Of a stretch of 64,000 nucleotides of DNA, positions 4,018 through 64,000 are shown one piece after another; positions within the stretch are counted from its first letter, which is position 1, and each line of letters starts with the position of its first letter. Source of the DNA: Candidatus Omnitrophota bacterium (lineage in GTDB: Bacteria; Omnitrophota; Gorgyraeia; Zapsychrales; Fredricksoniimonadaceae). Both the position numbers and the translations under genes were made by a program. Location: NCBI GenBank assembly GCA_903901225.1, contig CAIUQE010000037.1, positions 39,885 through 103,884 on the forward strand, given 5' to 3'. The notes under the pieces were generated by a model. It was not told where the DNA came from, made no database searches, and saw only the letters and a program-made list of their open reading frames with translations.

Positions 4018-4039
4018 GCAAATCTAAAATATTCGTCGA

Positions 4040-4185: not shown

Positions 4186-4194
4186 ATTCATCTC

Positions 4195-4267
4195 GCCGAC
4201 GTAGCTCAGTTGGTAGAGCAGCTGATTTGTAATCAGCTGGTCGGGGGTTCGACTCCTCTCGTCGGCT
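4195..4267 (+). tRNA. tRNA-Thr (anticodon TGT)
   Basis: GCCGACGTAGCTCAGTTGGTAGAGCAGCTGATTTGTAATCAGC...GGTTCGACTCC...CGTCGGCT cloverleaf; anticodon loop TTTGTAA. Confidence 0.85.
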
Positions 4268-4288
4268 TTTTTTGACAAAATTTCATGT

Positions 4289-4374
4289 GGGTAGATACCC
4301 AAGTGGCCAAAGGGGACAGACTGTAAATCTGTTGCGCTTGCGCTTCGAAGGTTCGAATCCTTCTCTGCCCACCA
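4289..4374 (+). tRNA. tRNA-Tyr (anticodon GTA), long variable arm, CCA encoded
   Basis: GGGTAGATACCCAAGTGGCCAAAGGGGACAGACTGTAAATCTG...TTCGAAGGTTCGAATCCTTCTCTGCCCACCA; closely resembles bacterial tRNA-Tyr. Confidence 0.85.
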
Positions 4375-8927: not shown

Positions 8928-9027
8928 GCGCGTGATAATTTAACCTCTACTTTCCGCGGAACAACAGGGTGTGTCCAGCCCACCTTATATCGTTAACTTT
9001 GAGACGAACAACACAAGGAGTTCCTGT

Positions 9028-15088: not shown

Positions 15089-15187
15089 CTACCTCAGGAT
15101 CTCGCCGTTGACATAGATCCACGTGATGATGGCAAGGCCGAGGGCGATGATCTTCAGCGGAATATTATTCGTGAAAAAAGATCTCAT
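15089..15187 (-). CDS. 32-codon membrane mini-ORF overlapping the cdaA stop (possible CdaR/YbbR N-terminal remnant)
   Basis: ATGA overlap with the cdaA stop; translation MRSFFTNNIPLKIIALGLAIITWIYVNGEILR resembles the N-terminal signal-anchor of CdaR; too short for the ORF track. Confidence 0.3.
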   Translation of the reverse strand: MRSFFTNNIPLKIIALGLAIITWIYVNGEILR

Positions 15188-22711: not shown

Positions 22712-22788
22712 TGGTGGCGGCGACTGGATTTAAACCAGTGACACAGCGGGTATGAACCGCTTGCTCTATCGGACTGAGCTACACCGCC
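22712..22788 (-). tRNA. tRNA with anticodon CAT (elongator Met or tRNA-Ile2/lysidine substrate), CCA encoded
   Basis: GGCGGTGTAGCTCAGTCCGATAGAGCAAGCGGTTCATACCCGCT...TGGTTTAAATCCAGTCGCCGCCACCA; G1-C72 paired (not initiator); D-loop A19 with T-loop U56 looks like covariation of the G19-C56 pair. Confidence 0.75.
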
Positions 22789-49426: not shown

Positions 49427-51208
49427 TCAACGCAGGTTCAACGAACAAACCTTTCGCGTGTCGTCGTAAACATATTCATTCAAATAATGCGCGTAAACAT
49501 ACTGCCAGATCTTTTTCGTTTCTATCGAATCCGCGCGCGCCATCTCCTGATCGAAGGCCCATGCCGCAGCCGCATACTCCGAGAATTGCAATGAAAGACG
49601 GATCATATCCTCGCCATATTTATAATCTGAAGAACCTTGAACAGCATCGGCATAAGCATGCAAGGCCGCAGCAACATCCCCTTTTTGCTCGAAAATATGG
49701 CCCAGAAGAAACATACCCACGGGATATCTGTCGACCTTCATATATGTCCTTAGATACAACTCCGCGGACATGACGTCATTCTTTGCCAAATAGGCCTTCA
49801 CCATCCCGATCACCGGCGCGCTGGGAGTTTCATCCGTAAAAGGAGCCAAGGCAATAGCCATTTCATTGTACTTAATGCCATCATCATAGTTCCCGGCATT
49901 GACCGCTGCTTCGCCGGCAACCTCATAACCTTTATGGTCTTTGGGATACTTGGCGATCCAGGCCAACCCGATCGTCATATTATCTTTCCAAAGGCGTTCA
50001 TTATAAAAAGTCGCGCTAGCGCACAACCCGATCAGTAAAACCATCCCCCAACGCGCAAGGCCTTTAAAGGCAGGGGCATTGCCTTGATAAACCTTATCGT
50101 ATAGGACGCCCAAAAGGACCCATACCGCGATCCCCGGCATATACAGGTACCTCAAAGCAATCGGATTCCACGTCGGGATAAGGTTGGACACCGGCAGATA
50201 GGTCAACAAAAACCAGAGCCCCCAGAAAACGGGCCTGTCTTTTATAACAATGGCACGGATCACCCATATGAAATATCCCGCGCATAAAAAAAATAAAACC
50301 CAGAATTCGATCGTTACGGCGGATAAAAGCCGCGGCAGATACAAACCGGGAAAAGAAATAAGGTTCGCGGGCAAACAGAAAGCCCTTAAATTAATACCGA
50401 GTGCCGTTATGACCAACCCCGCATGCTTCAACAAGGACCACCCCCCCCAAACACCAAGGACTGTCTGGTTGGGAAAAATAATGACATAACAGTAAAGATA
50501 CAGCGCCATGACAGCGCCAAATAATAGGAACCAGACACTATCTGTCTTTGCGCGAAAATTACCCGGATACAACCGGTCGTAAAGAATGAACATCAACGGC
50601 AGGAACAAAGCTGTCTCTTTTGAGAAGATCGCCAGAAAAAAAACAGCAACTGCGCCGGCGGCCCAGAGACCAGCCCCCTGCCTGCGAAAAATACACCAGC
50701 ACCCCAATGAAAGGAGAGAAAAGAATACGACGAGAAGGTCCGCCCTGTAACCTATGGCCGCCACCGCCTCGGACTGGACCGGATGGGCTGAAAAAAGGAT
50801 GGCCGCGACAAAAGCCGCCTGTGGGGAAATAAAGAACTCACTCAACAGTAGGAAGATCAGGATCGTGTTCAACAAATGCAACAGAAGATTTGTGCCATGA
50901 AGCCCCCCGGCCTTATCTCCCCATAATTTAACATCCAGAAAATAGGTAAGGCTGAGCACCGGTCGATACGCGATAGAACCTGACCCTTTATTGGCAGATT
51001 CATGCTTGATCAATACCTCCGGGCGCGTCGTATAATCTTGCGAAAATAACATGCCGATATTTGAAAAGGAACGATAAAACGTATTATTGATGAAGATGAT
51101 CGCGTCATCTCCGGCAAAACCGTTGAGAACAACACTCCCGTGGAGGATCAGCGTCAACAGGACCAGAAGAAAAAGTTTTTTGGGATATAAGGAAATGCCG
51201 GAGGTCAT
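49427..51208 (-). CDS. TMTC-like polytopic membrane glycosyltransferase candidate (DUF1736-like core) with C-terminal TPR repeats
   Basis: 593 aa; N-terminal LNGFAGDDAIIF motif, about 11 TM helices, C-terminal TPR-like helical repeats. Confidence 0.5.
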   Translation of the reverse strand: MTSGISLYPKKLFLLVLLTLILHGSVVLNGFAGDDAIIFINNTFYRSFSNIGMLFSQDYTTRPEVLIKHESANKGSGSIAYRPVLSLTYFLDVKLWGDKAGGLHGTNLLLHLLNTILIFLLLSEFFISPQAAFVAAILFSAHPVQSEAVAAIGYRADLLVVFFSLLSLGCWCIFRRQGAGLWAAGAVAVFFLAIFSKETALFLPLMFILYDRLYPGNFRAKTDSVWFLLFGAVMALYLYCYVIIFPNQTVLGVWGGWSLLKHAGLVITALGINLRAFCLPANLISFPGLYLPRLLSAVTIEFWVLFFLCAGYFIWVIRAIVIKDRPVFWGLWFLLTYLPVSNLIPTWNPIALRYLYMPGIAVWVLLGVLYDKVYQGNAPAFKGLARWGMVLLIGLCASATFYNERLWKDNMTIGLAWIAKYPKDHKGYEVAGEAAVNAGNYDDGIKYNEMAIALAPFTDETPSAPVIGMVKAYLAKNDVMSAELYLRTYMKVDRYPVGMFLLGHIFEQKGDVAAALHAYADAVQGSSDYKYGEDMIRLSLQFSEYAAAAWAFDQEMARADSIETKKIWQYVYAHYLNEYVYDDTRKVCSLNLR

Positions 51209-51950: not shown

Positions 51951-52580
51951 CTAAAAACCTGCAGGGCTCTGCCGGAATTTCACGACTGTCTGGGGATTGG
52001 CCGCAGTGCCGCTGGTCAAAGCAGCTCCGGAGACCGCTGCCCCGGCGGAAGGATCTTTACGATTGACAAGGGTCATGTCAAAATAATAATCACCCGTAGT
52101 TGGGGCCGTAGTTGCCAGAGGACGGGGAATGATCGTCGAAGAGATCGTAAATTCATCACTGACCAGCGTTCCTGAAAATGTGCCTGTATTATCGCAGGTG
52201 CCGGCGGAAGTCCCTGTATCACAGGCATAAACATTCGTTCCAACAAGCGTAAAACAGTGCCAGTTATCATCGATATAAATATTGGGCGTATATGTCCCCG
52301 AGACCTCAACATCCCTGCGAAAACAGACTGTCTTATTGCTGACATCGATTGAGATCCCGGAATTCGAAGTCGTAAGGTCGCCATGAACGCGCTTGACGCT
52401 CTGACGAATATAATCCTCCAGGGCCCTGGTCATCAGATAGACCTGAATATCACCTGTCACCTGCTTGCCGGTGCTGCGCAGTCCATATTCCGCGGCAAGG
52501 ACGCCCCCCACGACCACCGATACAATAATGGTCGCTATGATCAGTTCCGTCAGCGTCAGCGCGCGTAAACTTTTTGACAT
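51951..52580 (-). CDS. prepilin-type (class III signal peptide) protein, minor pseudopilin candidate; Ala at -1
   Basis: MSKSLRA|LTLTELIIATIIV: positive leader, hydrophobic helix, Glu at +5. Confidence 0.5.
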   Translation of the reverse strand: MSKSLRALTLTELIIATIIVSVVVGGVLAAEYGLRSTGKQVTGDIQVYLMTRALEDYIRQSVKRVHGDLTTSNSGISIDVSNKTVCFRRDVEVSGTYTPNIYIDDNWHCFTLVGTNVYACDTGTSAGTCDNTGTFSGTLVSDEFTISSTIIPRPLATTAPTTGDYYFDMTLVNRKDPSAGAAVSGAALTSGTAANPQTVVKFRQSPAGF

Positions 52581-52589
52581 AAACGTATG

Positions 52590-52937
52590 CTACCAGGTTA
52601 CCGTAATGACTACTTTCCGGGCACCAACGGAATTGGTGACAACATAGGACGCTGAGCACCCTGAGAAATCGGTATCCGTCAACCCGGAGTGGGTACCGAT
52701 CGACAAATTCCCCGCAGCCCAGGCCTGGGCATTGACATCCTTGCTCAATCCATCAAGGATCTTCTTGGCCATCAGGGAAGCATTCAACCTCCCAACACTG
52801 GAACTCTCTGTCTGTTTTAATTTAGCGATGGAGCCAAAAGCAAGCATCGCGGAACCGGCAAAAATAACAGCCGCCACGACGACTTCAACAAGTGAATATG
52901 CTTTATTGGAATAATAATGCCGTCTGAACAGTATCAT
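52590..52937 (-). CDS. prepilin-type protein; Ala at -1
   Basis: Start moved to an internal Met: MILFRRHYYSNKA|YSLVEVVVAAVIFAG with Glu +5. Confidence 0.45.
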   Translation of the reverse strand: MILFRRHYYSNKAYSLVEVVVAAVIFAGSAMLAFGSIAKLKQTESSSVGRLNASLMAKKILDGLSKDVNAQAWAAGNLSIGTHSGLTDTDFSGCSASYVVTNSVGARKVVITVTW

Positions 52938-52941
52938 ATCG

Positions 52942-53346
52942 TTATGGACACGATGAATTCGAGGTTGCACATGACGGGTTGGTTGTCGAAAGGTCAGCAT
53001 TCAGATCGACCGTGATCACATAATCCGTACTTCCGGCAGTTGAAGTAGCATTGCAGGTATTAACAGCCGCGGTTCCGGATCCGCACTTATAAGTTGCCTG
53101 GTTTGCAACAATGTTCAGGCTTAATGCTGTGTTAATGTCGGTTATGGATGCTGATCCAGTAAGATTTGAACCTGTTCTTGCTTTATAGATTACATTCGCT
53201 GCGCTGATCATGGTCAGGCTTGTGATCGCATCACGTGCCCTTGACCGCCGGGAAGTTTTTCCATAATTTGGCAGAGCAAATCCCGCCAGGATGCCAATGA
53301 TGATAACCACCAACATGAGTTCAATAAGAGTGAATGAACGACGCAT
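52942..53346 (-). CDS. prepilin-type pilin; Ser at -1; C-terminal Cys-rich tail ending CP
   Basis: MRRS|FTLIELMLVVIIIGILAGFALP; paralog of the 54851-55234 gene (both end ...TVDLNA...NP.C...CP). Confidence 0.55.
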   Translation of the reverse strand: MRRSFTLIELMLVVIIIGILAGFALPNYGKTSRRSRARDAITSLTMISAANVIYKARTGSNLTGSASITDINTALSLNIVANQATYKCGSGTAAVNTCNATSTAGSTDYVITVDLNADLSTTNPSCATSNSSCP

Positions 53347-53354
53347 CGGACACC

Positions 53355-53753
53355 TCACGGGCAAGCCGTATTAGGACAAAGTTTCTTTAAGGATGCGGTA
53401 CATGACGGACAAGTATACGCGCCTGCAGTTGAAACATAAAGCGTATAAGCACCACCCGTTCTGGTTATTCCGATATTTCCGGCCACCGAACCGGTGTTAC
53501 AATCGGGAGCTGTGTAATTTTGAGGGGTAACATCGACATCCAAAGTAGTGCAGTCGGTGCTATACGCCCCATTATGCTCGAGAGAATAACGGGCTTCAGA
53601 TGCATGCAGTAATTGTGCGGCGCTAATGGCTTCGGCAAAAACCGCGCCCTCTCTCGAACCCGTTAAACGGGGAAGCGCAACGGCCGCCAAAATCCCTATA
53701 ATAATGATCACCACTATTATTTCAATTAAAGTAAAGGCTTTGTTTTCTGCCAT
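53355..53753 (-). CDS. prepilin-type pilin; Ala at -1; four C-terminal Cys
   Basis: MAENKA|FTLIEIIVVIIIIGILAAVALP; start chosen at the Met with better RBS spacing (alternative 53780). Confidence 0.55.
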   Translation of the reverse strand: MAENKAFTLIEIIVVIIIIGILAAVALPRLTGSREGAVFAEAISAAQLLHASEARYSLEHNGAYSTDCTTLDVDVTPQNYTAPDCNTGSVAGNIGITRTGGAYTLYVSTAGAYTCPSCTASLKKLCPNTACP

Positions 53754-53780
53754 CTGCGCCTTCTTTCTCTTTAAATACAT

Positions 53781-53817
53781 ATCCCCTTGGCCAAGAGCTT
53801 GACTCGGCCAAAGGGAT
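53781..53817 (-). terminator. hairpin (12-bp arms, 1 mismatch) just downstream of the major pilin gene; attenuator/terminator candidate
   Basis: ATCCCCTTGGCC...GGCCAAAGGGAT followed on the transcribed strand by AUGUAUUUAAAG. Confidence 0.35.
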
Positions 53818-53841
53818 ATATATGTCAACAAAGAACACTTC

Positions 53842-54010
53842 CTACTGCTTCAAATTGGCAAAAATGCCCCCTTTGAGCTTGTTAACTGATCCATTTGTAA
53901 CATTAATTGTAAAGGTGATAACGTCTGCTGTTGAACCACCAAGCGATGCGGTTCCTAACGCAGAAGTTGCGCTCGCGCCAGCTACATATGTGTACACAAA
54001 AGCACCCGAG
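53842..54010. repeat. near-identical direct repeat, copy 1 (3' end of pilin gene)
   Basis: About 150 bp about 95% identical to 54423-54590; the same spurious opposite-strand ORF translation appears in both copies. Confidence 0.7.
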
Positions 54011-54252
54011 GTCGGAAACTGGAAACCTGACAGTTGCGCCGTTGTATCGCACTTAGTTATATCTTCAGAAGCTGTATAACATTCCATAATTTTATGCATG
54101 AGCGAGCCAAGAATACCGTAGGCTTCGGCTGCTTTTGAAACACTGACCTGGTTAGAAAGCTTCGGCAAAGCCACGGCAGCGAGGACACCAATGATAATAA
54201 CAACGATGATTATTTCAATGAGCGTAAAACCTTTTTTATTCTTTTTAATCAT
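53842..54252 (-). CDS. type IV major pilin / pseudopilin candidate with canonical Gly at -1
   Basis: MIKKNKKG|FTLIEIIIVVIIIGVLAAVALP; own TATAAT promoter and strong RBS; 136 aa. Confidence 0.7.
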   Translation of the reverse strand: MIKKNKKGFTLIEIIIVVIIIGVLAAVALPKLSNQVSVSKAAEAYGILGSLMHKIMECYTASEDITKCDTTAQLSGFQFPTSGAFVYTYVAGASATSALGTASLGGSTADVITFTINVTNGSVNKLKGGIFANLKQ

Positions 54253-54272
54253 AACCTTCCCCCTTTTTGTAA

Positions 54273-54302
54273 ATTATAACGATAAAAAATAAAAATTACT
54301 AA
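54273..54302 (-). promoter_or_regulatory. promoter for the major pilin gene: perfect TATAAT -10, weak -35, AT-rich upstream region
   Basis: Minus strand TTAGTA-(17/18)-TATAAT, then a 13-nt leader with GGGGAAGG RBS and ATG at 54252. Confidence 0.45.
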
Positions 54303-54422
54303 AACAAAATTTCAACTATCAAAAGTATAACTTAGAAAAATATCGATATCAAGGACTTCTTGATAAATTATTGCCTTATTTTTTTCAAAGCTAAATCATC
54401 GCACATATAATTTTGAAAAGCA

Positions 54423-54590
54423 TTATTGCTTCAAATTAGAAAAAATGCCCCCTTTAAGCTTGTTAACTGATCCATTTGTAACATTAATTGTAAAGGTGAT
54501 AACGTCTGCTGTTGAACCACCAAGCGATGCGGTTCCTGTCGCAGAAGTTGCACTCGCGCCAGCAACATATGAATATACAAAGTTAGCTGA
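54423..54590. repeat. near-identical direct repeat, copy 2 (3' end of pilin paralog)
   Basis: See copy 1 at 53842-54010. Confidence 0.7.
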
Positions 54591-54833
54591 CGACGGAAAC
54601 GCGAAACTTGGCAGTTTAGCGACGGCATCGCACTGATTCATATTTTCAGCCATTGTATAACATTCCATGATTTTACGCATAAGCGTGCCTAAAATACTGT
54701 ACGCTTCCGCGGCTTTCGCGACACTGACCTGGTTGGCCAATTTCGGCAATGCCGTAGAAGCCAGGACACCAATGATAATGACCACAATGATAATTTCGAT
54801 AAGCGTGAAAGCTTTCGTTTTAAGTCGGGTCAT
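54423..54833 (-). CDS. type IV pilin paralog of 53842-54252; Ala at -1
   Basis: MTRLKTKA|FTLIEIIIVVIIIGVLASTALP; C-terminal 40 aa nearly identical to the neighbouring copy; start moved to an internal Met after GGAGGA. Confidence 0.65.
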   Translation of the reverse strand: MTRLKTKAFTLIEIIIVVIIIGVLASTALPKLANQVSVAKAAEAYSILGTLMRKIMECYTMAENMNQCDAVAKLPSFAFPSSANFVYSYVAGASATSATGTASLGGSTADVITFTINVTNGSVNKLKGGIFSNLKQ

Positions 54834-54850
54834 ATAGTCCTCCGTAAATC

Positions 54851-55234
54851 CTATGGGCAATAAGTTCCAGAACAAAGCGGATTAGATGCCGTAACACCCG
54901 CGTTTAAATCAACAGTTGTTGAAAAATCACCACTCACCGTTGCCGTACAAAGATGTGACCCGCAAGAATACGACAACCCGTTAGGGATAATATTTAACCC
55001 GAGCCCGGAATTTATACTGCTTATACTGGAAACAACACCAGACGGGGCAAAATTATACCCGTTCTTTGATTTATAGATCGCGTTCGCGCCGCAGACAAGA
55101 GAAAGATTAGCGATCGAATCGCTGGCTTTGGCTCTTTTTATTGTTTTTGAAAATCCCGGCATAAAGAAAGCCGCCATGATCCCAATGATCACAACAACCA
55201 GCAACAGCTCAACAAGTGAAAAAGCTTTACGCAT
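54851..55234 (-). CDS. prepilin-type pilin; Ala at -1; C-terminal CP motif
   Basis: MRKA|FSLVELLLVVVIIGIMAAFFMP; paralog of the 52942-53346 gene. Confidence 0.55.
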   Translation of the reverse strand: MRKAFSLVELLLVVVIIGIMAAFFMPGFSKTIKRAKASDSIANLSLVCGANAIYKSKNGYNFAPSGVVSSISSINSGLGLNIIPNGLSYSCGSHLCTATVSGDFSTTVDLNAGVTASNPLCSGTYCP

Positions 55235-55393
55235 CGCACACTTCACAGACATAGCCGCCAACCTCACGGGACAACTTTGTCAAATGTCCAAATAATCATG
55301 AAGATCTAAATGCCAACAATGATACGCACATGTCAGCATCTAGCCCCATTACAAATATAAACCATTATAATGATGTTAACAAGCCCGGAACGC

Positions 55394-56626
55394 CTACCCG
55401 GTGGCCAAGGTTAGAATGGGCATGAACATGGCCGTAACGATCACGCCGATGATAGAACCCATGAATACGAGCATGACCGGCTCAATGACAGAACCGAACG
55501 CTTTCATGAATGTTTCAATGTTCTTCTTATAATAAACGGCAACATGATTCAACATTTTTCCCAATTCACCTGTTTCTTCACCAACACGGATCATTTGAAC
55601 GGCCATGGGAGGAAAAAACCCGCTTTGTTCCATAGGCTCGGCCAGCAACCTCCCCTCACGGACGCCTTCCCGGATCCGCTTGATGACTTCGGCACAAATC
55701 AAATTATCCACCAGGCGTTCTGAGATTTCCAAGGCATAAAGGATCGGTACGCCGCTATCCACGAGGATCGCCATTTGAGAGGTGAATTTTTCAACCACAA
55801 TGAGTTTGATCGTTTTGCCGAACACGGGCAAGCGAAACAAAAAAGCCTCAAATTGCCGACGGCCAGGGCCGGCGCTAACATACCCCTTGAACATGAAGAC
55901 AGCCGCTGCGATCCCTCCGGCCAGAAGGATAAACTTTTCCTTGACGACCTTGAAGACAAACAAAAGCCATGTCGTGATGCCGGGTAACGTGGCATGCATG
56001 TCATTGAATATTTTCTCAAAGGTAGGGCCGATAAATATGGCAAAGAAAAGTATGGCCGCCGAACAAATAAAACAAAGGACCATGGGATAGACCATGGCAC
56101 CCAGAATCGCGGAACGGAACGCGGCCTCCTGTTCCATGTATAACGTCAATTGAAGGAGGACTTTAGGCATGGTTCCCGAAGCCTCTCCCACTTCCACAAG
56201 GCTGACCCAGAACGGCGAAAAAACTTTTGGATATTTGGACAAAGCACGGCTGAAGGACTGCCCCTGTTCGACATCACGAATAGCGGCATCAAGAACATTG
56301 GCGAGCTCACGACTCTCAACCTGTTGCGAGATAACCGTGAGCGATCGCAATAACGGGACACCCGCCTCGATCATGGTCGCCAATTGCCGCGCAAAAGATA
56401 CAATGTCCTCCAAAGAAACACCGCCGCGAGTGAACTTCCTTATGGATTCACCCTGAGAGATATCCGCTCTGACGGCAGGGGCAAGGTCAGATTGTTTTTT
56501 TACTCCGGTAACAAAAAGGCCCTTGGCCTGAACCTCTTGAACGGCGCGATCGCTCGCATCCGCTTCAACTACCTCGTTAAAGATACGTCCGGACATGTCT
56601 TTGGCTGTTACCAGGAATTTTGACAT
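55394..56626 (-). CDS. gspF: type II secretion / type IV pilus platform protein (GspF/PilC family)
   Basis: 410 aa; two T2SSF repeats each followed by TM helices. Confidence 0.85.
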   Translation of the reverse strand: MSKFLVTAKDMSGRIFNEVVEADASDRAVQEVQAKGLFVTGVKKQSDLAPAVRADISQGESIRKFTRGGVSLEDIVSFARQLATMIEAGVPLLRSLTVISQQVESRELANVLDAAIRDVEQGQSFSRALSKYPKVFSPFWVSLVEVGEASGTMPKVLLQLTLYMEQEAAFRSAILGAMVYPMVLCFICSAAILFFAIFIGPTFEKIFNDMHATLPGITTWLLFVFKVVKEKFILLAGGIAAAVFMFKGYVSAGPGRRQFEAFLFRLPVFGKTIKLIVVEKFTSQMAILVDSGVPILYALEISERLVDNLICAEVIKRIREGVREGRLLAEPMEQSGFFPPMAVQMIRVGEETGELGKMLNHVAVYYKKNIETFMKAFGSVIEPVMLVFMGSIIGVIVTAMFMPILTLATG

Positions 56627-56636
56627 AGAGTACTCC

Positions 56637-58355
56637 TTATCCGATCGTCACGCCAAGTATCTCATCCAGGCTTGTGACACCCTCTTCAACCTTCTTGATC
56701 CCTGTTTCAAAAAGAGTCGCCATCCCGGCCTGACGGGCAGCATCACGCAATTCCGAATAAGGGGCATTCTTGCCTATCAAACGCCTCATATTATCATCCA
56801 CTAACAGGACCTCGGCAACCACCAAACGGCCTTTATACCCCGTGTGAGAACATTTATCGCATCCCTTGGCCCGGTAGATCAGGTCAGTGGCAAGTTTTAC
56901 CTCTCCTAACTCATCGGGTTTTGGCTCATACGCTTCTTTGCAACTGGGACAAAGTTTCCGGCCAAGCCGCTGAGCGACGATCATGGTCAACGAGGGCGTC
57001 AAAAGATAAGAAGGAACGCCAATGTCCAGCAAACGTGAAATAGCGGATGGGGCGTCATTCGTATGCAGCGTGGAAAGCACAAAATGGCCCGTCAAAGCCG
57101 CGCGCGCGCATATCTGCGCGGTCTCAAGATCACGCACCTCCCCCACCATGATAATATCAGGGTCCTGACGCAAAAAAGAGCGTAACGCTTCGGCGAAGGT
57201 GAAACCAATATCCGGCCGAACATGAACCTGATTAACCCCATCGATACGAAATTCAACGGGGTCCTCCGCGGTCATGATATTTTTGGAAGGGGACATGACC
57301 TCGCCAAGACAGGAATACAATGTTGTTGACTTTCCGCTACCGGTGGGGCCAGTTACAAAAAACAAACCATAAGGGGTCTGTAAGGCCTTGCGGATAATAA
57401 CCAGCTGCTTGGCATCAAACCCCAGGATCGACAGGTCTAAGCGGATGGCATCTTTATCAAGAATACGCATAACGATCTTCTCACCCCACACCGTGGGAAG
57501 AGACGACACGCGAAGATCGACCGTGCGATTTTCAAGCTTCGCCGAGATACGGCCATCCTGAGGCAAGCGCCTTTCCGCGATATCAAGCTTAGCCAGGATC
57601 TTCACGCGAGAAACTATATGCTGATGAAGATGTTTGCCGGGAGGAGGGATCTGATAAAGCTCGCCATCAATACGATACCTGAGCTCGATCTTGTCTTTGA
57701 AGGGCTCAATGTGAATATCACTCGCACGCTCATCTATGGCCTGGCGAATAATGAGATCCACAAGTTTAATAACAGGCGCTTCTTCAGCCCTGGCGATAAG
57801 CCTGTCAAGGCTGAGTTCGGTTTCAGATACTTCATCACTGGAAATACTATCGTTGGATGAGGTTGATCGCGCCCGTTCAACCGCCTTTCCCCACATAGTC
57901 GCGTTGAGATCCTCTGCTGCAAGATAAAAATCTGAAATGGCCTTGATAAGGTCCGAACGGGTCGCGATGACAAAATTGATGTCACAATTTGTCATCTTCT
58001 TCAAATTGTCGATCATGATAAGATCAAAAGGATTAAAAATAGCACAGGTCAACGAGTTGATATTGCGGCTAAGCGGGAGGACCAAATGTTCTTTCGCGTA
58101 TTCATAAGGGACAAGCTTGCCAAGTCCCTGGTCTTTCTGTGGAACAAGAAGACCGGAAGCTTTCGAAGCATAAGGGATAAGGAGCTGCGTCCCCAGGGCA
58201 CTGGCCAAATCTTCTTCCTGAATAAGGCCTTTTTTTAATAACAATTCACCCAGATGCCCTTTTTCGGACTTCTGACTTTCAACGACATCCTGAAGCTGGG
58301 CCTCGGTAATAAGGCCCTGCTTGATCAAAATTTCGCCAAGCCTTAACCTTGCCAT
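56637..58355 (-). CDS. gspE: type II/IV secretion ATPase (GspE/PilB/MshE family) with N-terminal MshEN-type c-di-GMP-binding domain
   Basis: Walker A GPTGSGKSTT, Asp box, His box, tetra-Cys CPSC...CDKC; N-terminus has two copies of the RLGxx[LVI][LVI]xxG[LVI][LVI]x4[LVI]x3[LVI]xxQ motif. Confidence 0.9.
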   Translation of the reverse strand: MARLRLGEILIKQGLITEAQLQDVVESQKSEKGHLGELLLKKGLIQEEDLASALGTQLLIPYASKASGLLVPQKDQGLGKLVPYEYAKEHLVLPLSRNINSLTCAIFNPFDLIMIDNLKKMTNCDINFVIATRSDLIKAISDFYLAAEDLNATMWGKAVERARSTSSNDSISSDEVSETELSLDRLIARAEEAPVIKLVDLIIRQAIDERASDIHIEPFKDKIELRYRIDGELYQIPPPGKHLHQHIVSRVKILAKLDIAERRLPQDGRISAKLENRTVDLRVSSLPTVWGEKIVMRILDKDAIRLDLSILGFDAKQLVIIRKALQTPYGLFFVTGPTGSGKSTTLYSCLGEVMSPSKNIMTAEDPVEFRIDGVNQVHVRPDIGFTFAEALRSFLRQDPDIIMVGEVRDLETAQICARAALTGHFVLSTLHTNDAPSAISRLLDIGVPSYLLTPSLTMIVAQRLGRKLCPSCKEAYEPKPDELGEVKLATDLIYRAKGCDKCSHTGYKGRLVVAEVLLVDDNMRRLIGKNAPYSELRDAARQAGMATLFETGIKKVEEGVTSLDEILGVTIG

Positions 58356-58360
58356 AAGCC

Positions 58361-59839
58361 TTACCTGTTATATCCCGCCCGCTCATCCGCGCGATCAAGT
58401 TCCATCTGGATAGTATCCGATCGTTGAGGCCCGGAAGTTTCGCGGTCTTGCGCATTCACGACCGCGTTCTTGTTTGCTTGGTAGCCGGCATCAGAGGACA
58501 GAATATGCGGCGTGATAAATATAACAAGCTCACGATCAGTGGTACTGACTGATTTATGACGAAAAAGACGACCCATGATCGGGATATCCCCCAAAATAGG
58601 GACTTTGGTGGATGTGGTATTGTTAACGGCACGCAATAGGCCTCCAAGAACAAAAGTCTCTCCGTCACGCACCCGCATCATCACCTTTGCCCCGCGTGTT
58701 TCGGGGTCTTTAAATCCGGCGAACGCGGAATCTCTGACCTCAATGACCTTGGGGGAAACGGCGATCATGATCTCCCCTGACAGCAGGTTGATCTGCGGCG
58801 TGACCGTAAGAATTACACCTGTTTCATAGCGCTCAGCCGTATTCGTTGTGACCAATGTCGTCCCCGAACCTGAATTGGTCGAAGTCACACCGATAACCTC
58901 ATTGGTGGATATCTGTATCTGCGCTGTTTCATTATTCAATGTCAGTAGACGTGGCCGCGCCAGCGTCTTTGTGTCTGTTTTAGTCGTCAAAAACTGCAAA
59001 GCGGCAGAGAACGCTTGGCCGTTCATAACCCCCCTCGAATAAGTTGTTCCCATCGCGCCGTTATTCAACGCATCCTTTTGGCTCAACGGCCATAAAAAGT
59101 CATTGCCACCCAACCCCTGAATGTTATAAAGCGTAGCACCAAACTTAACCCCCATCTGCTGAAGTGCCGACTTGGACGTGTCGATCATTTCAACCTGGAT
59201 AAGCACTTGCGGTATGGATACATCAAGTTTGGCAATAATGCCTTCAATAGCTGGGAAATTCTCTTCCAAAGCCGTTATGACCAAACTATTCGTGCGCAGA
59301 TCAGTCACGATCTTGCCCCCATCACCAACGACCGATTGCAATGCAGATACAATATCGCCACCTGTACCGGCACCTGCAGCCGCTGCCGCCCCGGTCGCCG
59401 TTGGATCAGTAATTGATATCGTTGAAAGAACTTTGGACCCGGGCAAAGCGGTATATTTCAAAGGATACACGCGCGTTGCTGTCTTTTTTACCAGAGTTAG
59501 TTGCGGTGTCACAAAGAAGATATTCGACCGCGCATCATATGTGAACTTAAGATCGTTTGCCGTTAAAACTTTATCCAGCGCCACCTCAACAGGGACATCG
59601 TTAAGAAGCACTGTCACAGTCAAGTTCTTAACAAGACTTGAAAGAATAAAATTTGATCCAATCTTTTTAGAAAAAACCTTCAAAACATCTTTAATATCCG
59701 CATCTTTAAAATCAAGGGATATCACCTTCGAATATTGCGCAAGAAGAAAAGGGCTGCCCTGGTCCGGATCAGCCGCAAAAGAACCCGTCACGCCAATAAA
59801 AAACAGGATAATGGATATAATGGCTGGGCTTTTCTTCAC
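58361..59839 (-). CDS. secretin (GspD/PilQ family), short form
   Basis: Signal peptide, N0-like domain (ISLDFKDADIKDVLKVFSKKIG), secretin_N repeats, C-terminal secretin domain; 492 aa. Confidence 0.85.
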   Translation of the reverse strand: MKKSPAIISIILFFIGVTGSFAADPDQGSPFLLAQYSKVISLDFKDADIKDVLKVFSKKIGSNFILSSLVKNLTVTVLLNDVPVEVALDKVLTANDLKFTYDARSNIFFVTPQLTLVKKTATRVYPLKYTALPGSKVLSTISITDPTATGAAAAAGAGTGGDIVSALQSVVGDGGKIVTDLRTNSLVITALEENFPAIEGIIAKLDVSIPQVLIQVEMIDTSKSALQQMGVKFGATLYNIQGLGGNDFLWPLSQKDALNNGAMGTTYSRGVMNGQAFSAALQFLTTKTDTKTLARPRLLTLNNETAQIQISTNEVIGVTSTNSGSGTTLVTTNTAERYETGVILTVTPQINLLSGEIMIAVSPKVIEVRDSAFAGFKDPETRGAKVMMRVRDGETFVLGGLLRAVNNTTSTKVPILGDIPIMGRLFRHKSVSTTDRELVIFITPHILSSDAGYQANKNAVVNAQDRETSGPQRSDTIQMELDRADERAGYNR

Positions 59840-59846
59840 TTTCTCC

Positions 59847-60320
59847 TCATTCGTTATTAAAAGATGTCGTAAATTTCTCTTCCTTGAATAAGAACACGAT
59901 GCCTTTTTTTTCTATCTTAAATATTTTTGCACCGGCGACAATTTCACCCTCCTGAAGCACCTGCCCATTGATAACGGCTACAGGATGCTCACCATCATAT
60001 AAAACCCCCGTGATCTTCATATCGGGAAGAACAACTTTTTGCTTGACTGGCGGCGGCGCCTTAACTTTAACAACCCGGGGTGGTATCGCCTTCTTCGCCT
60101 CCTGCATTAATTTAGTTTCACGCGCACGCCGGGCCTCATTGATACGTTGCATAAAAAGATCAAAAAGCTCAGGGACTTGGGTCTTGATGCTAAAAGGATC
60201 CATCAAGGAAGATTCTGTCTTGTCTTCAGGGGGTGGATTTTCCTGGGCTAAAGCCGACACTCCCTGTCCATGGTACAGAAAAAAGCAAAGTACGATAATA
60301 GTATATAGGCAACGCCGCAT
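59847..60320 (-). CDS. PilP/GspC-like lipoprotein-type secretin partner
   Basis: Signal peptide MRRCLYTIIVLCFFLY; C-terminal KITGVLYDGEHPVAVINGQVLQEGEIVAGAKIFKIEKKGIVFLFK resembles the PilP/GspC beta-domain; start moved to an internal Met to limit overlap. Confidence 0.45.
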   Translation of the reverse strand: MRRCLYTIIVLCFFLYHGQGVSALAQENPPPEDKTESSLMDPFSIKTQVPELFDLFMQRINEARRARETKLMQEAKKAIPPRVVKVKAPPPVKQKVVLPDMKITGVLYDGEHPVAVINGQVLQEGEIVAGAKIFKIEKKGIVFLFKEEKFTTSFNNE

Positions 60321-60324
60321 ATTA

Positions 60325-61020
60325 CTATTTTTTTTGAAGATTTTTTTTGTCATTCTCCACCAATGCGATTGACGCGACATCCAGGATCATTGACAACGAG
60401 AACTTCGTCTGATTCTCGGCAACAGCGGTCTGATCGTCCCTCATTTCAAATTCGTTGATGCTGGAGTTAATCGAACAGGAATTCACCTTAACGAAGTGTT
60501 TCCCTTTCTCCAGGTCACGCACAAAAGCCAACGCATCCTGAAATGTCATCCCTGAACACAAAAATCTGATGCTCACCGTACGAAAAAAACCGCTGGACGT
60601 TCTGCGAACGGGCTCAAATGAATTGATCTGGATATTAAGATCTGTTGCTGTTTGCGTAATAAAAGATACCAGATCAGCGTCGGATAAAGCCAGCGGGATC
60701 GTCCCCACAAAAGCCTTCCTGGCCTTGAGCGCATCCTGATACTCACGAACAGGAACCTCCTTGGCCAACAGCGCAGAAACTTTCATCTTATAATCGGAAT
60801 ATTCGCTATAACGAACATTTGCCGTAATCGCAGCCCAGATCAAAAAAACAATAACAATGATCAAATAAAGGACCAGGGCTTGCTTCTCGTTAATGAACTC
60901 CCTGAGATCTTCAGGCTTTAAGTTCTTTATGTTGTAAAGTAATTTTTTGAGATCATCGACAGAAACACTTGAGAAGCGACCGGGGTCGATCTTGAACTTC
61001 TTAAGATCAGGAGTATTCAT
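60325..61020 (-). CDS. PilO/GspM-like bitopic assembly protein
   Basis: Cytoplasmic N-terminus, single TM (LVLYLIIVIVFLIWAAI), about 160-aa periplasmic domain; position between the PilMN fusion and the PilP-like gene. Confidence 0.45.
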   Translation of the reverse strand: MNTPDLKKFKIDPGRFSSVSVDDLKKLLYNIKNLKPEDLREFINEKQALVLYLIIVIVFLIWAAITANVRYSEYSDYKMKVSALLAKEVPVREYQDALKARKAFVGTIPLALSDADLVSFITQTATDLNIQINSFEPVRRTSSGFFRTVSIRFLCSGMTFQDALAFVRDLEKGKHFVKVNSCSINSSINEFEMRDDQTAVAENQTKFSLSMILDVASIALVENDKKNLQKK

Positions 61021-62666
61021 TTCCCCTCACATGCGATCGAAAAGGCAACGATCTTATTTTGGGTAGCTTTGAATTCTTTAGCAATAACTCCGGAAAGTTT
61101 TATGTTCTTGAAAAGAGAAGACATCATGGCATCAGCTTGCAACGTATCAACAAAAACATTAACAAGCACATACGTTTCATTAAGATCACGCGAATACGCC
61201 GACCCGGAAAAGGTCATTCTTACAATTGTTTTAAGGGATGTGTAGGCCGAAACGGGCAAGCCATCCAACGCGTCGGATTGCTCTGTTGGATTTTCAACGG
61301 CGGCTGTTTTGTCATCAAAATCAACCTGGACATTTTCTATCCATATCCCCTTAGGAACAAGGCTCGCGAATCTGGCAACAAACGGCTCCATGCGGCTTTT
61401 TAAAGGCAGCTTCTTGAGTGCGGTCAGTTTTTCTACTTCTTCAAGAGTTTTTTTCTGAGCTTCTTCCTGTGTCAAGTCCGGACTGGTGCTCAAACGTTCA
61501 GAAACAGCCAGGAACTGGTCACGCACTGTCCTGACAAGCTCGCCGCCGCCCCATGAGGTCAGGACCATCAAAAACACACAGATAACCCCGATAACAACCG
61601 GGAGAATGAGCTGGCGATTCCTTTCCAGTATTTCATCTTTCTTCAAGGAAACCTGACGGGAAGCCCCTTCAGAAAGATTAAAGTCAATGACGGATGGGAC
61701 CGTGCCCGCAAGAGCTGCCCCGAAAGCAGCAACCTCACCCACGTCTGTCACATTGGACAGTCCGAGCTGACGCAAAGGATCAACAATATCGACGGGCATA
61801 CCTATATCTTCGCTCAACCCTGACCAGAAAGACTGGTTCAACCCGGAAGAAAAAATGATGATCTTGTTGATGTCTTCATTCTCATGCTGGCGCGAAAAAA
61901 ACTCAAAAGACATCCTGACCTCATTGAACAATTTCATGCGAGACACTTCTTCATTACCCTTGGGAACAGGCAACGGCAACAGCGCTGAGGCCAACTCCGG
62001 CATGATCTGGACTTTAAAATCCCGAATGAATTTTACATGGCCTTTCGAGGTGATGATCAGCGATCCGGAATCTTTGGAAGTCAGGAGGATCGCCGTCACC
62101 TGCGAAGGCTCGATCTGCTTTTTAAAGATCAAGGACCTGATCAAACTGGTCGGACCTGGCTCACTGTAAACAACGTTAAGCCCGGATTGTGAAAGGACAT
62201 TCAGATACCTTTGAAAAACATCCTTGCGAATGGCAACAAAAAGTATCCCGATCTGCCGCGCATCGCCCTTGACCAGGGTTGTTGGATAATATGTATACGC
62301 CATCTCATCGATCGGGAAAGGAGTATATTTCTTTGCTTCATACGCGACAACATCCTGGATCTCACTGGTTTTCATCCACGGAATAACAAACCAGCGGATC
62401 AAAACATCTTTGGAAGGAATGGAAAAATATGTTTCAAGGACCGAAAAGCCTTTGTTCGTGACCGCTTTCTGGATGGCATCAAGAAAAGAGGGGTCATCAA
62501 AATCGGGGTTCCCGCCCGCATCAGGCTTCAAAAGGGAGGAAAATGGCACAAACGCGGAAATTGTCGCCGCATCCCGATCCACTTCAACAAAGCTGAAGCC
62601 GGTTTCTCCCCAATGAAGACCGAGTCGTTTACGATTGCTGGGCATGTGTGTTATCCATAAAATCAA
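61017..62666 (-). CDS. PilM-PilN fusion (GspL-like): cytoplasmic actin-like domain, TM helix, periplasmic domain
   Basis: 549 aa; about 340-aa N-terminal region with the PilM/FtsA-like ATPase fold pattern, TM LILPVVIGVICVFLMVL, about 190-aa C-terminal periplasmic region. Confidence 0.55.
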   Translation of the reverse strand: MILWITHMPSNRKRLGLHWGETGFSFVEVDRDAATISAFVPFSSLLKPDAGGNPDFDDPSFLDAIQKAVTNKGFSVLETYFSIPSKDVLIRWFVIPWMKTSEIQDVVAYEAKKYTPFPIDEMAYTYYPTTLVKGDARQIGILFVAIRKDVFQRYLNVLSQSGLNVVYSEPGPTSLIRSLIFKKQIEPSQVTAILLTSKDSGSLIITSKGHVKFIRDFKVQIMPELASALLPLPVPKGNEEVSRMKLFNEVRMSFEFFSRQHENEDINKIIIFSSGLNQSFWSGLSEDIGMPVDIVDPLRQLGLSNVTDVGEVAAFGAALAGTVPSVIDFNLSEGASRQVSLKKDEILERNRQLILPVVIGVICVFLMVLTSWGGGELVRTVRDQFLAVSERLSTSPDLTQEEAQKKTLEEVEKLTALKKLPLKSRMEPFVARFASLVPKGIWIENVQVDFDDKTAAVENPTEQSDALDGLPVSAYTSLKTIVRMTFSGSAYSRDLNETYVLVNVFVDTLQADAMMSSLFKNIKLSGVIAKEFKATQNKIVAFSIACEGK

Positions 62667-62717
62667 TTAAATCTCTTGGCTGACCTAATGTCAAGGCATT
62701 TGAAAGAAACTTCATTA

Positions 62718-63065
62718 CTAATAAGAAACGGTCGTGTCGATCCTGGTCGTCCCTGAGGGTCCCGCGCTCGCTGTACTCGTGAATGTGACAGTATACGTCC
62801 TGCTGCCCGCAATCCCGCCGGTAGAACTGGGCGTGGGCTCGGAATAATCAGAGGGAGGAACACCGCCATTCTGATACCCTCTCCAGAAAGCTCCCTTGGC
62901 CAGTATTTCCGCCTGAATATGAGCCGCCTGGCTCTCCGCGATCGCGGCCTTGCTCAGGTAACGGCTTACCGTCCCTAATGTAATAAGAGACATTACCAAG
63001 ATCGCCGCAATAACAATGACCAAGACCAACCCTCTGTCTTTCCGAAAAATCCCGGCATCAAGCAT
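62718..63065 (-). CDS. GspK-like minor pseudopilin candidate (Gly -1, no Glu +5)
   Basis: Start moved to an internal Met: MLDAGIFRKDRG|LVLVIVIAAILVMSLITLG resembles GspK N-termini (RGVALIxVLLxVAxLT); short (about 115 aa). Confidence 0.3.
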   Translation of the reverse strand: MLDAGIFRKDRGLVLVIVIAAILVMSLITLGTVSRYLSKAAIAESQAAHIQAEILAKGAFWRGYQNGGVPPSDYSEPTPSSTGGIAGSRTYTVTFTSTASAGPSGTTRIDTTVSY

Positions 63066-63300
63066 CGTCTTCCTCCGTGTAGCTTGAACAAATGGAACAG
63101 CGTAATATTTTTCTGTGAAGGTAATCAACGCACACATGTCCGCAATACGGACATTGCCTGACATGGTCGGTCAAATCTGCGTTCACATCAAAATTATCCA
63201 CACCTTGATAATGCTCACACCACATCAAAGCAACATAAAAAACAACGAAAGCTGCAAAAAGAAAAGCCCCTGCCGCAAAAGAGACATCCATTTTGATCAT
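63058..63300 (-). CDS. small membrane-anchored zinc-ribbon protein (hypothetical)
   Basis: N-terminal TM FAAGAFLFAAFVVFYVALMW then CPYC...(16)...CSIC; 80 aa. Confidence 0.35.
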   Translation of the reverse strand: MIKMDVSFAAGAFLFAAFVVFYVALMWCEHYQGVDNFDVNADLTDHVRQCPYCGHVCVDYLHRKILRCSICSSYTEEDDA

Positions 63301-63716
63301 CGCCGGTCCAAGCGTAATTTTATGCCCCCTTCCAGCGGCGCCTCATCTAGATGAGCATCAGTCTTGGGCATGTTCGCCTGATCAGGTTCGACGCGCTCAC
63401 CGAGGAAGCGCGGAATAAGCTCATCGGGACGCGGCAACAAATCCTCCGCCTGGCCTGGCTTCTCGACTTGAATGCCTCGTCGCCAGTTATCCTCGTGAAC
63501 ACCATTACCGTAATAAAAGCGGGGCATCCCAAGATCGACGACGGCTGCGGGCTGAACTCTCGACGACGAAACCTCCTGATGCCTGAGAATAGCGCCCAAA
63601 AAGACATAGTTGATCCGGTAAATGTCCTGAGTTCCCCTGACCGTCAATGTAAAACAAGCTAAAACAGCCACATGGATCAAAAAAGATATGCCGGCGTTAC
63701 GGTACAACAACATCAC
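63297..63716 (-). CDS. hypothetical membrane-anchored protein (possibly a short TonB/TolA-like partner of ExbD)
   Basis: N-terminal TM, Pro/Glu-containing linker; lies directly downstream of an exbD/tolR-like gene; weak. Confidence 0.2.
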   Translation of the reverse strand: MMLLYRNAGISFLIHVAVLACFTLTVRGTQDIYRINYVFLGAILRHQEVSSSRVQPAAVVDLGMPRFYYGNGVHEDNWRRGIQVEKPGQAEDLLPRPDELIPRFLGERVEPDQANMPKTDAHLDEAPLEGGIKLRLDRR

Positions 63717-64000
63717 TCTTCTCTGTCTGTAGCCAGGTTGATGGTTGAAAAGCCAAGGCTACGGCCCATATCCCATATCTCCACCACCCTGCCAATTGAA
63801 GCGCGCCGGTCCGCTTGGATAAGAACCGACCGGGAGTCAGTCCTGGCCGAAGCAAGAAAATTTCTCAATTCCAGCAAGGTAACTATTTTATCATGAACGT
63901 ACACGATATTCTCACCTGTAACAACTATTTTTATATCTTTCCCGCTGGCCATGTCGCTCGTGATCGCTTTCGGAAGCTTAACCCCGAACGGCGTGGACAA
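63713..64000 (-). CDS. ExbD/TolR family biopolymer transport protein (5' end outside the window)
   Basis: C-terminal periplasmic domain pattern ...SVLIQADRRASIGRVVEIWDMGRSLGFSTINLAT. Confidence 0.6.
   Translation of the reverse strand: MSTPFGVKLPKAITSDMASGKDIKIVVTGENIVYVHDKIVTLLELRNFLASARTDSRSVLIQADRRASIGRVVEIWDMGRSLGFSTINLATDREE

Follow-up and report, generated by a model that had tools for sequence, protein, structure and literature searches.

The closest described relatives of the genes analysed here are the type IVa pilus (T4aP) gene clusters of the phylum Omnitrophota. In a TXSScan survey of 421 Omnitrophota genomes, 135 of 141 Velamenicoccia genomes had such clusters, as did the majority of genomes in the remaining classes, and V. 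archaeovorus expresses type IVa pili; the survey did not describe the clusters component by component (Seymour et al. 2023, PMC10066038). Here we present a component-level analysis of a pilus locus from a Candidatus Omnitrophota bacterium, carried on a 64,000-nucleotide stretch of contig CAIUQE010000037.1 (positions 39,885 to 103,884, hereafter the window). The locus comprises fourteen genes, tightly packed on the minus strand between window positions 51951 and 63065 and transcribed from the higher coordinate down to the lower. In that order the genes encode a prepilin-like protein of 115 residues (here called X115), a PilM-PilN fusion protein (PilMN), a PilO-like protein, an exported protein of 157 residues, a secretin, an ATPase, a platform protein and seven prepilins, with spacings of 0-170 nt or with overlaps.

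The locus probably encodes a self-contained type IVa-like pilus assembly machine of diderm Omnitrophota, vertically inherited across the phylum. PilM, PilQ, a type IVa (T4a) pilin, an MshEN-type PilB N-terminus and a PilX-like protein occur in it together, and this combination indicates type IVa pili. We regard it as an ordinary, divergent type IVa-like operon of a kind already known at survey level rather than as a new machine, and it is very probably one of the clusters counted by Seymour et al. An initial annotation, made from the letters of the window, had listed the same fourteen close-packed minus-strand genes, and this inventory stands in full. It had also read them as an unusual mixture of type II secretion system (T2SS) and T4aP parts, a reading that finds no support, since the diagnostic components lean towards T4aP.

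Components of the assembly machine

In the fusion protein only the N-terminal part matches Pfam PilM_2 (PF11104), the pilM model TIGR01175 being likewise confined to it, and a profile of the family searched against the PDB recovered PilM alone (M. xanthus at 5.8e-18, T. thermophilus at 1e-10 and P. aeruginosa at 2e-4), with no match to GspL. The AlphaFold2 model (pLDDT 73) consists of an actin-like domain at residues 14-320, which would be the cytoplasmic PilM domain, a long transmembrane and coiled-coil helix at 342-419, and a ferredoxin-like alpha-beta-beta-alpha-beta-beta domain at 427-548, of PilN type and predicted to be periplasmic. When this model was searched with Foldseek the ten best matches were PilM (E 1e-18 to 1e-16, target-normalised TM-scores 0.58-0.71), followed by FtsA and then by cytoplasmic EpsL/GspL at 5e-11 to 1e-8. 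An invariant VIDFNLSEG (residues 326-334) stands directly ahead of the transmembrane helix and appears to resemble the INLLP peptide by which PilN binds PilM, and the transmembrane helix, the coiled coil and the start of the ferredoxin-like domain align weakly with E. coli HofN. Single-sequence alignments made with hhalign between the Omnitrophota profiles and E. coli GspL, HofM and HofN and Aeromonas MshI were weak and of low probability, and were used as hints only. Because the protein matches PilM in both sequence and fold, and continues into a transmembrane and ferredoxin-like part of PilN type, we interpret the gene as a fusion of pilM and pilN. A single PilMN protein is already known as part of the type IV pilus cluster of C. 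difficile (PMC7057214). An exhaustive profile search of a representative library found 480 clusters (50% identity) of the fusion family at E<=1e-30, and among the best 150 of these almost all members are 500-540 residues long and match from end to end; the fusion is therefore no rarity but a large family passed on by vertical descent.

The fusion has the topology of GspL, so that the "GspL-like fusion" of the initial annotation was correct as to the fusion and its layout, but both the PDB profile and Foldseek rank PilM above GspL, and by sequence and predicted fold the protein is of PilM type, without visible GspL ancestry. This topology is the first of several features that would suit a T2SS, in which the pilins would assemble into a short pseudopilus within the periplasm and drive folded proteins, such as hydrolases, out through the secretin. 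A T2SS would also account for the single ATPase with no PilT within reach, for the resemblance of the protein in the PilP position to T2SSB and the homology-region (HR) domain of GspC, for an ATPase core equally close to EpsE and to PilB, and for GspF being the best model for the platform protein; T2SS-like loci are moreover known beside giant genes in Omnitrophota, though these are different, RcpC-containing loci. Against this stand the PilM identity of the fusion itself, sub-threshold matches to GspM and T2SSM_b where a GspM would be expected, and the character of the secretin, the ATPase N-terminus and the major pilin.

The secretin consists of a signal peptide, an N0 domain that is weak in Pfam, a single N domain and the secretin domain (Pfam Secretin and Secretin_N), and no AMIN domain was found in it by Pfam, in keeping with the short secretin of the initial annotation. 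It aligns with the PilQ model TIGR02515 over positions 3-427 of 428 at 202.8 bits, below the cut-off of 284, and over its full length with HofQ models. The match to the GspD model TIGR02517, in contrast, covers the C-terminal half alone (model positions 283-597): the N1-N3 array of GspD is missing, one Secretin_N domain being all that Pfam recognises in its place. MshL gives 122 bits. In the PDB the best relatives are Neisseria PilQ (residues 38-448 against 338-753) and then Vibrio PilQ. On these alignments the secretin is of the PilQ/HofQ type.

The ATPase carries a T2SSE match of 458 bits, a Walker A motif, a tetracysteine motif and, as the initial annotation had also recognised, an MshEN domain. 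Its best NCBIfam model is PilB (TIGR02538, 625.7 bits against a cut-off of 675.65), with GspE at 588.3 bits and likewise below its cut-off; over the full length its best PDB matches are the PilB proteins of Geobacter and Myxococcus at 490-493 bits. A PDB search with the first 150 residues recovered the MshEN domains of PilF, PilB and MshE and returned no match to the N1 domain of GspE (N1E), the part that binds GspL. Two tandem 24-residue cyclic di-GMP (c-di-GMP) motifs (RLGxxLLxxGLIxxxxLxxxLxxQ) occupy residues 5-28 and 34-57, five residues apart; in 16 of 23 orthologues both fit the strict pattern and in 22 of 23 at least one does, and the c-di-GMP motif model NF053729, at 55.3 bits, exceeds its cut-off of 38. 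The N-terminus is thus predicted to be a c-di-GMP receptor domain of MshEN type. In a neighbour-joining tree of 378 core columns the Omnitrophota ATPases form one clade (bootstrap 100), sister to the Clostridial PilB of Acetoanaerobium (86), which lies in a pilB-pilT-pilC-pilin locus, and apart both from GspE and from two MshE sequences that pair with each other at 100. The ATPase is 43% identical to this MshE pair, and its core is about 47-52% identical to GspE. Across related loci the ATPase retains 57-84% identity where that of PilMN is only 21-50%.

For the PilO-like family, PF04350 PilO was matched in 7 of 14 members and PF10741 T2SSM_b in 5 of 14, all under the gathering score, and a PDB profile search gave no meaningful match; the gene keeps its place between the genes for PilMN and the secretin partner across related loci. 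The alignment proteins of a T4aP, PilM, PilN and PilO, can accordingly all be named, the PilO part by sub-threshold matches. The 157-residue exported protein, which occupies the position of PilP, matches PF16537 T2SSB at 29.7 bits, above the gathering score; among 23 members of its family 20 match T2SSB, 11 match CdsD_C and one matches PilP. Its PDB matches are weak (GspC HR domain, E 0.014), in an MSH (mannose-sensitive haemagglutinin) cluster on a Legionella plasmid the protein at the MshK position matches it with 34.8 bits, and no lipobox cysteine follows its signal peptide, unlike a PilP lipoprotein. The "PilP-like" gene of the initial annotation is therefore present but its name is not borne out, and by its matches this protein, of GspB/MshK type, is the single component that really leans towards T2SS or MSH. 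Because of its HR-type domain its role is probably analogous to that of PilP. In the platform protein PF00482 is found in two stretches (192 bits), and the NCBIfam scores are 331 bits for GspF, 302 for Thermus PilC and 290 for Myxococcus PilC, all under their cut-offs.

A pilus of the MSH type would also explain part of this set. The genes form a single locus ordered like mshI-J-K-L-(M-N)-E-G, as in the MSH clusters of Aeromonas and of the Legionella plasmid, no peptidase lies in the locus, as in all MSH loci, the ATPase has a c-di-GMP-type MshEN domain, and the protein in the K position matches its Legionella counterpart. Yet the AAA ATPase MshM, which the TXSScan model requires, is in none of the loci, nor is there an MshN; the ATPase falls outside the MshE pair; the secretin scores 122 bits with MshL against 203 with PilQ, and the major pilin 49 bits with MshA against about 70 with T4a pilins; and MshEN domains occur in the PilB and PilF of T4aP too. 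We hold an MSH-type system to be highly improbable.

Pilins, absent genes and the weight of the evidence

Each of the seven prepilins that the initial annotation had counted has a short basic leader (a class III signal peptide), Gly, Ala or Ser at position -1, an aromatic residue or Leu at +1, and Glu at +5. The products of pil2 and pil3 are 77% identical. For the candidate major pilin, which has the Gly/Ala-1, Phe+1 and Glu+5 of a T4a major pilin, a profile aligns over the full length with T4a pilins (PAK at 71 bits, PilE, Thermus PilA), whereas GspG (52 bits) and MshA (49 bits) align with the N-terminal helix alone. The AlphaFold2 model (pLDDT 85.5) shows a single long helix together with a sheet of four strands. 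Among Pfam domains, relatives of the protein carry Pilin, Pilin_GH or ComP_DUS, but in no case T2SSG. Sequence and model thus argue for a type IVa pilin and not a GspG. In front of pil3 lies an AT-rich spacer of 170 nt, at the regional GC minimum of 0.36, in which sigma-70-like hexamers and a strong Shine-Dalgarno sequence occur; promoter-like sites in the pilus region number 24 against a shuffled expectation of 17.3 +/- 3.6, which is not clearly above it, so that the spacer is suggestive only of a promoter that pil3 may have of its own. The GC content falls to 0.36 over 54200-54800 (pil2, the spacer and the start of pil3), compared with about 0.54 for the window, and that of the pilus locus as a whole lies 4-8 points below its flanks.

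The five prepilins other than pil2 and pil3 count as minor pilins. Those of pil1, pil4 and pil5 are paralogues, pil1 being 44% identical to pil5; each has 4-6 Cys and a Cys-Pro at the extreme C-terminus, and this type is present in 1-4 copies per related locus. The type of pil5 is the most widely conserved pilin among related loci, and pil6 is conserved in 15 of them. In pil6 and pil7 the N-terminal methylation motif alone is recognisable, apart from a weak ComGE match in pil6; all 11 members of the pil7 family match N_methyl and no other family, and a PDB profile search with pil7 gave nothing meaningful.

X115 has the leader MLDAGIFRKDRG and Gly at -1, followed by LVLVIVIAAIL..., with no Glu at +5. 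In 15 loci its orthologues likewise have Gly-1 and a hydrophobic helix that lacks Glu+5, and they share ..V(S/T)Y at the C-terminus. X115 matches no family in Pfam or NCBIfam (PilX_N appears in 1 of 13 members at E 0.033) and a PDB profile search with the family found nothing meaningful, but about 17 distant relatives carry the JGI name 'Tfp pilus assembly protein PilX', and all relatives with an organism name are Omnitrophota. X115 is probably a PilX-type minor pilin. The earlier label "GspK-like" does not hold, since X115 has 115 residues against about 330 in GspK, gives no GspK/T2SSK match, and has distant relatives labelled PilX.

With the pilins in view the T2SS can be judged as a whole. 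The major pilin is of T4a type; neither GspG nor any of GspH, GspI, GspJ and GspK was matched in the locus; and in place of a GspC, whose HR and PDZ domains TXSScan treats as mandatory, there is no T2SSC or PDZ protein but only the T2SSB-type protein of 157 residues. Together with a PilM-type fusion, a secretin of PilQ/HofQ architecture and an MshEN rather than an N1E domain on the ATPase, this makes a secretion system very unlikely.

The genes for a prepilin peptidase and for a retraction ATPase were sought over a wider region. Gene starts throughout are the public gene calls on an identical metagenome contig, ENA ERZ18660404 scaffold_14 (201 kb), of which positions 93211-171498 were annotated, that is, the window with about 4 kb past its position 64000 and 10 kb before its start. 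In these 78 kb the precomputed Pfam hits include no Peptidase_A24 gene and no second T2SSE gene. We also searched by tblastn 663 kb made up of the window, its flanks and 30 related loci, using as queries the prepilin peptidases of A. baumannii, Geoalkalibacter and E. coli, two PilT proteins, and the MshM proteins of Aeromonas and Legionella. The three peptidases gave zero matches; the two PilT queries found the PilB-like gene itself and, a long way upstream of the pil genes, two marginal matches (E 0.008); and MshM gave one marginal match of 72 residues (E 0.006), inside the PilB-like ATPase gene of one locus (L036). Within about 10 kb, the 30 related Omnitrophota loci contain no second ATPase and no peptidase, and neither PilU nor PilY1 was found near the pilus locus. 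Annotation and tblastn thus agree with the initial annotation that PilD and PilT are absent from the window. That annotation had also taken the single ATPase as a T2SS hallmark, which it is not: in TXSScan the peptidase is a 'loner' and an exchangeable gene, no MSH locus contains one, and PilT has frequently been lost, or retraction proceeds in its absence (PMC6668835). By comparison with such systems, a locus without a peptidase is normal, and a single in-locus ATPase with the peptidase elsewhere is common. In the literature on pilT and pilD in Omnitrophota, the sole statement found is that PilT open reading frames are common to metagenome-assembled genomes of UBA12090 Omnitrophota and Patescibacteria.

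The pilus might serve chiefly for DNA uptake, as a competence pilus of the Hof/Com type of Pasteurellaceae and E. coli without a dedicated PilT. The secretin, AMIN-less and aligned along its length with HofQ, would fit, as would the lack of a nearby PilT, given that the PilT-less T4aP of Haemophilus takes up DNA (PMC6668835); recA and recX lie three genes downstream, and the pilin relatives carry the ComP_DUS domain. But neither comEA nor comEC is among the annotated genes in the 78 kb, and the recA linkage belongs to a generally conserved housekeeping neighbourhood. We think DNA uptake quite unlikely as the main role; since it is a sub-function of T4aP and not a different machine, it does not compete with the structural assignment.

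Several observations weigh against the assignment to type IVa pili. No component reaches the NCBIfam equivalog cut-off for any canonical system, and we therefore regard the locus as a divergent, lineage-specific member; the clean assignment to one system by which the initial annotation proposed to refute its mixture was accordingly obtained in part, with no equivalog cut-off reached but all diagnostic components leaning towards T4aP. The motor core of the ATPase is by its scores as near to the EpsE of the V. cholerae T2SS (412 bits) as to the PilB of Geobacter (416) and M. xanthus (424), values that are equivalent, and the deep nodes of the ATPase tree are unresolved, with bootstraps of 7-48. 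The platform protein scores slightly higher with GspF than with the lineage-specific PilC models, and the PilP position is held by a T2SSB/MshK-type protein instead of a PilP. Finally, the search of about 663 kb around these Omnitrophota loci recovered neither PilT nor PilD.

Gene neighbourhood and spread across Omnitrophota

The genes of the locus and the zinc-ribbon gene that adjoins it are listed in Table 1. The last pilus gene is followed after 2 nt by rsmE and then by a protein with several transmembrane helices and tetratricopeptide repeats (TPR), recA, recX, alaS and his genes, as the initial annotation had described. This TPR protein (593 residues, 49427-51208) has many transmembrane helices and C-terminal TPRs; its membrane part, without a Pfam match, is possibly GT-C-like, and it recurs beside rsmE and pilin genes in several related loci. 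A role for it in pilin glycosylation is conceivable.

Table 1. Genes of the pilus locus and the adjoining zinc-ribbon gene, in window coordinates; a slash in the prepilin motifs separates positions -1 and +1.
Feature	Position	Strand	Evidence
X115, 115-aa prepilin-like protein without Glu+5	62718..63065	-	translation, 15-locus orthologue comparison
PilM-PilN fusion, 542 aa	61017..62645	-	PF11104, TIGR01175, PDB profile, AlphaFold2 model, Foldseek
PilO/GspM-superfamily bitopic protein, 231 aa	60325..61020	-	sub-threshold PF04350 / PF10741 and position
157-aa exported protein, C-terminal GspB/MshK/GspC-HR-type domain	59847..60320	-	PF16537 T2SSB
Short PilQ/HofQ-type secretin, 492 aa	58361..59839	-	Pfam, TIGR02515, PDB
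PilB-like assembly ATPase, 572 aa, MshEN N-terminus	56637..58355	-	T2SSE, MshEN, NF053729, neighbour-joining tree
PilC/GspF platform protein, 410 aa	55394..56626	-	PF00482
Prepilin 1 (pil1), 133 aa, KA/FSLVE, ends Cys-Pro	54851..55252	-	N_methyl, TIGR02532
Prepilin 2 (pil2), 136 aa, KA/FTLIE, copy of candidate major pilin	54423..54833	-	N_methyl
Prepilin 3 (pil3), 136 aa, KG/FTLIE, candidate major type IVa pilin	53842..54252	-	
Prepilin 4 (pil4), 141 aa, KA/FTLIE, minor pilin, ends Cys-Pro	53355..53780	-	
Prepilin 5 (pil5), 134 aa, RS/FTLIE, minor pilin, ends Cys-Pro	52942..53346	-	
Prepilin 6 (pil6), 115 aa, KA/YSLVE, minor pilin	52590..52937	-	weak N_methyl and ComGE matches, Glu+5
Prepilin 7 (pil7), 209 aa, RA/LTLTE, large minor pilin, four conserved Cys	51951..52580	-	N_methyl
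80-aa membrane-anchored zinc-ribbon protein (CPYC...CxxC)	63058..63300	-	alignment of 13 orthologues

All named relatives of the fusion protein belong to Candidatus Omnitrophica/Omnitrophota. When the family alignment was used to scan GTDB species representatives, 30 loci with a full-length fusion were found at 21-81% identity, nearly all labelled Omnitrophota; the same scan also returned Patescibacteria loci, in which the PilM part alone matches. Gene order in the 30 related loci, mapped by local blastp, is conserved: UvrA, an exported TPR protein of 830 residues, then ExbB, ExbD, a small membrane protein and the 80-residue zinc-ribbon protein, and from X115 onward PilMN, the PilO-like protein, the HR-type protein, secretin, ATPase, platform protein and 2-7 pilin-type genes, with rsmE closing the order in most of the loci long enough to show it.

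The upstream block lies at window positions 63058-64000 and beyond (L001:1081-5298). The 830-residue protein has about nine TPR units of YbgF/CpoB type (TIGR02795, 228 bits) and is present in all related loci that reach far enough upstream (25 of 30). The ExbB scores 85 bits with TolQ against 55 with ExbB, the ExbD is TolR/ExbD-like, and there follow a membrane protein of 139 residues and the zinc-ribbon protein, which has a transmembrane segment and matches no family. Its gene is translationally coupled to the neighbouring genes, and the protein is possibly accessory to the pilus. Because the upstream genes overlap one another and X115, they are probably co-transcribed with X115. The idea that the TolQ/TolR-like genes form an integral part of the machine, driven by the proton-motive force, was rejected on two grounds: 6 of the 30 otherwise syntenic loci have none of the four genes that separate the TPR protein from X115, and conservation extends to the entire neighbourhood (UvrA ... 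RsmE, RecA). In most lineages the operon is translationally coupled to these TolQ/TolR-like genes, and the link could in principle be a functional one.

In eight distant Omnitrophota loci (L022, L023, L026, L028, L031, L032, L034 and L035, at about 8600-10000 in each) two more small genes flank the X115-like gene, the first encoding a cytosolic protein of 68 residues (MIIEIGITAGEIWHFLDQ...) and the second, directly ahead of PilMN, an excisionase-like helix-turn-helix protein of 61-69 residues (MSRLIDIDELADYLKL...), which could be a dedicated regulator. An Rfam scan of the window found four tRNA genes (3947-4371 and 22715-22788, three of them clustered), none within the pilus locus, and no further family at the gathering score.

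Proposed working of the pilus and comparison with known systems

PilMN, the PilO-like protein, the PilC/GspF platform protein and the PilB-like ATPase, of hexameric type, constitute the motor and alignment complex of the inner membrane; we propose that the first three would form a platform onto which the ATPase docks. Binding of c-di-GMP to the MshEN domain would license pilus assembly, and by analogy with other MshEN ATPases the operon is probably gated by this nucleotide. A PilZ-domain protein of 127 residues is encoded about 1.1 kb beyond window position 1 on the same contig (L005:13265-13648), which makes c-di-GMP signalling plausibly present; a CdaA-type diadenylate cyclase lies at window positions 15184-15957. 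The small HR-type protein would link the inner-membrane complex to the N0 domain of the secretin. A peptidase from another part of the genome would process the prepilins, the minor pilins would prime the filament with the Glu+5-less X115 at its tip, and the products of pil3 and pil2 would make up the fibre. The pilus would serve to attach the cell to a surface or a host cell, a role already proposed for Omnitrophota, and might also take up DNA; its retraction would depend on a PilT encoded elsewhere, or would be slow and independent of PilT.

There is a small chance that the operon is instead a minimal diderm type IV pilus with no PilT at all, in which a single c-di-GMP-gated ATPase powers both extension and retraction. 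One ATPase does drive both movements in the Tad pilus of Caulobacter. If such a minimal pilus were real, the PilMN fusion with its GspB/MshK-type partner would be a living intermediate between the architectures of T4aP, MSH and T2SS.

Omnitrophota are uncultured, mostly ultra-small and probably host-dependent, and pili are a leading candidate for the means by which their cells attach. For their conserved pilus operon a component-level description is now available, comprising the PilMN fusion, a short AMIN-less secretin, a GspB/MshK-type partner, a putative c-di-GMP-binding ATPase and a Glu+5-less PilX-like protein. The fusion provides a diderm example that bears on how GspL arose, and the components are targets for cryo-electron tomography, metatranscriptomics and heterologous biochemistry.

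Among the replicons examined alongside, two plasmids bear entire type IV filament clusters. On plasmid pMESIL02 of Allomeiothermus silvanus (L063:4119-11611) this is a Thermaceae set of a PilF-like ATPase of 832 residues, PilT, a hypothetical protein of 509 residues, PilO and a secretin; on a Legionella adelaidensis plasmid (L064:1-6863) the MSH-type set is complete and includes MshL, MshM and an MshE-like ATPase. Two PLSDB records, NZ_AP026896.1 and NZ_CP154629.1 (L057 and L058), are replicons of 4.9 Mb and 2.6 Mb filed as plasmids; they contain chromosomal genes, an msh cluster beside mreB and a pilB-pilT-pilC locus, have next to no annotation in PLSDB, and are probably mislabelled chromosomes.

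Set beside the Gsp systems, the Omnitrophota locus shares the topology of the fusion, a domain like that of GspB or the HR of GspC, the single ATPase and the similarity of its core to GspE; it differs in having no GspC, GspG, GspH-K or GspL by sequence or fold, no N1-N3 array and no N1E domain. With the MSH systems of Vibrio and Aeromonas it shares the single locus, the gene order, the peptidase outside the locus, the c-di-GMP-binding type of ATPase N-terminus and an MshK-like protein, and differs in the lack of MshM and MshN and in an ATPase, a secretin and a pilin that are not of MSH type by score or tree. The type IV pili of Clostridia are alike in two respects, the single PilMN of the primary cluster of C. 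difficile (PMC7057214) and the sister position of the Acetoanaerobium PilB; Clostridia are monoderm, however, without a secretin or its partner, and their clusters include PilT and PilD. The T4aP clusters of Seymour et al. come from the same phylum, in all its classes, and often adjoin a type 2/3 ('symbiotic') F-type ATPase (PMC10066038), which is absent from the 78 kb of contig around the present locus. From the canonical T4aP of Myxococcus xanthus, Geobacter, Thermus, Pseudomonas and Neisseria the locus departs in joining PilM and PilN in one polypeptide, in placing a GspB/MshK-type protein that is not a lipoprotein in the position of PilP, in a secretin without AMIN domains, and in gathering everything save the peptidase and any PilT into one operon, with PilT, PilU and PilY1 not nearby. 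What it has in common with these canonical pili is the PilM fold, a PilO-like partner, a PilQ-type secretin, a PilB-like ATPase with an MshEN N-terminus, PilC, a T4a major pilin, and a set of minor pilins that includes a PilX-like one without Glu+5.

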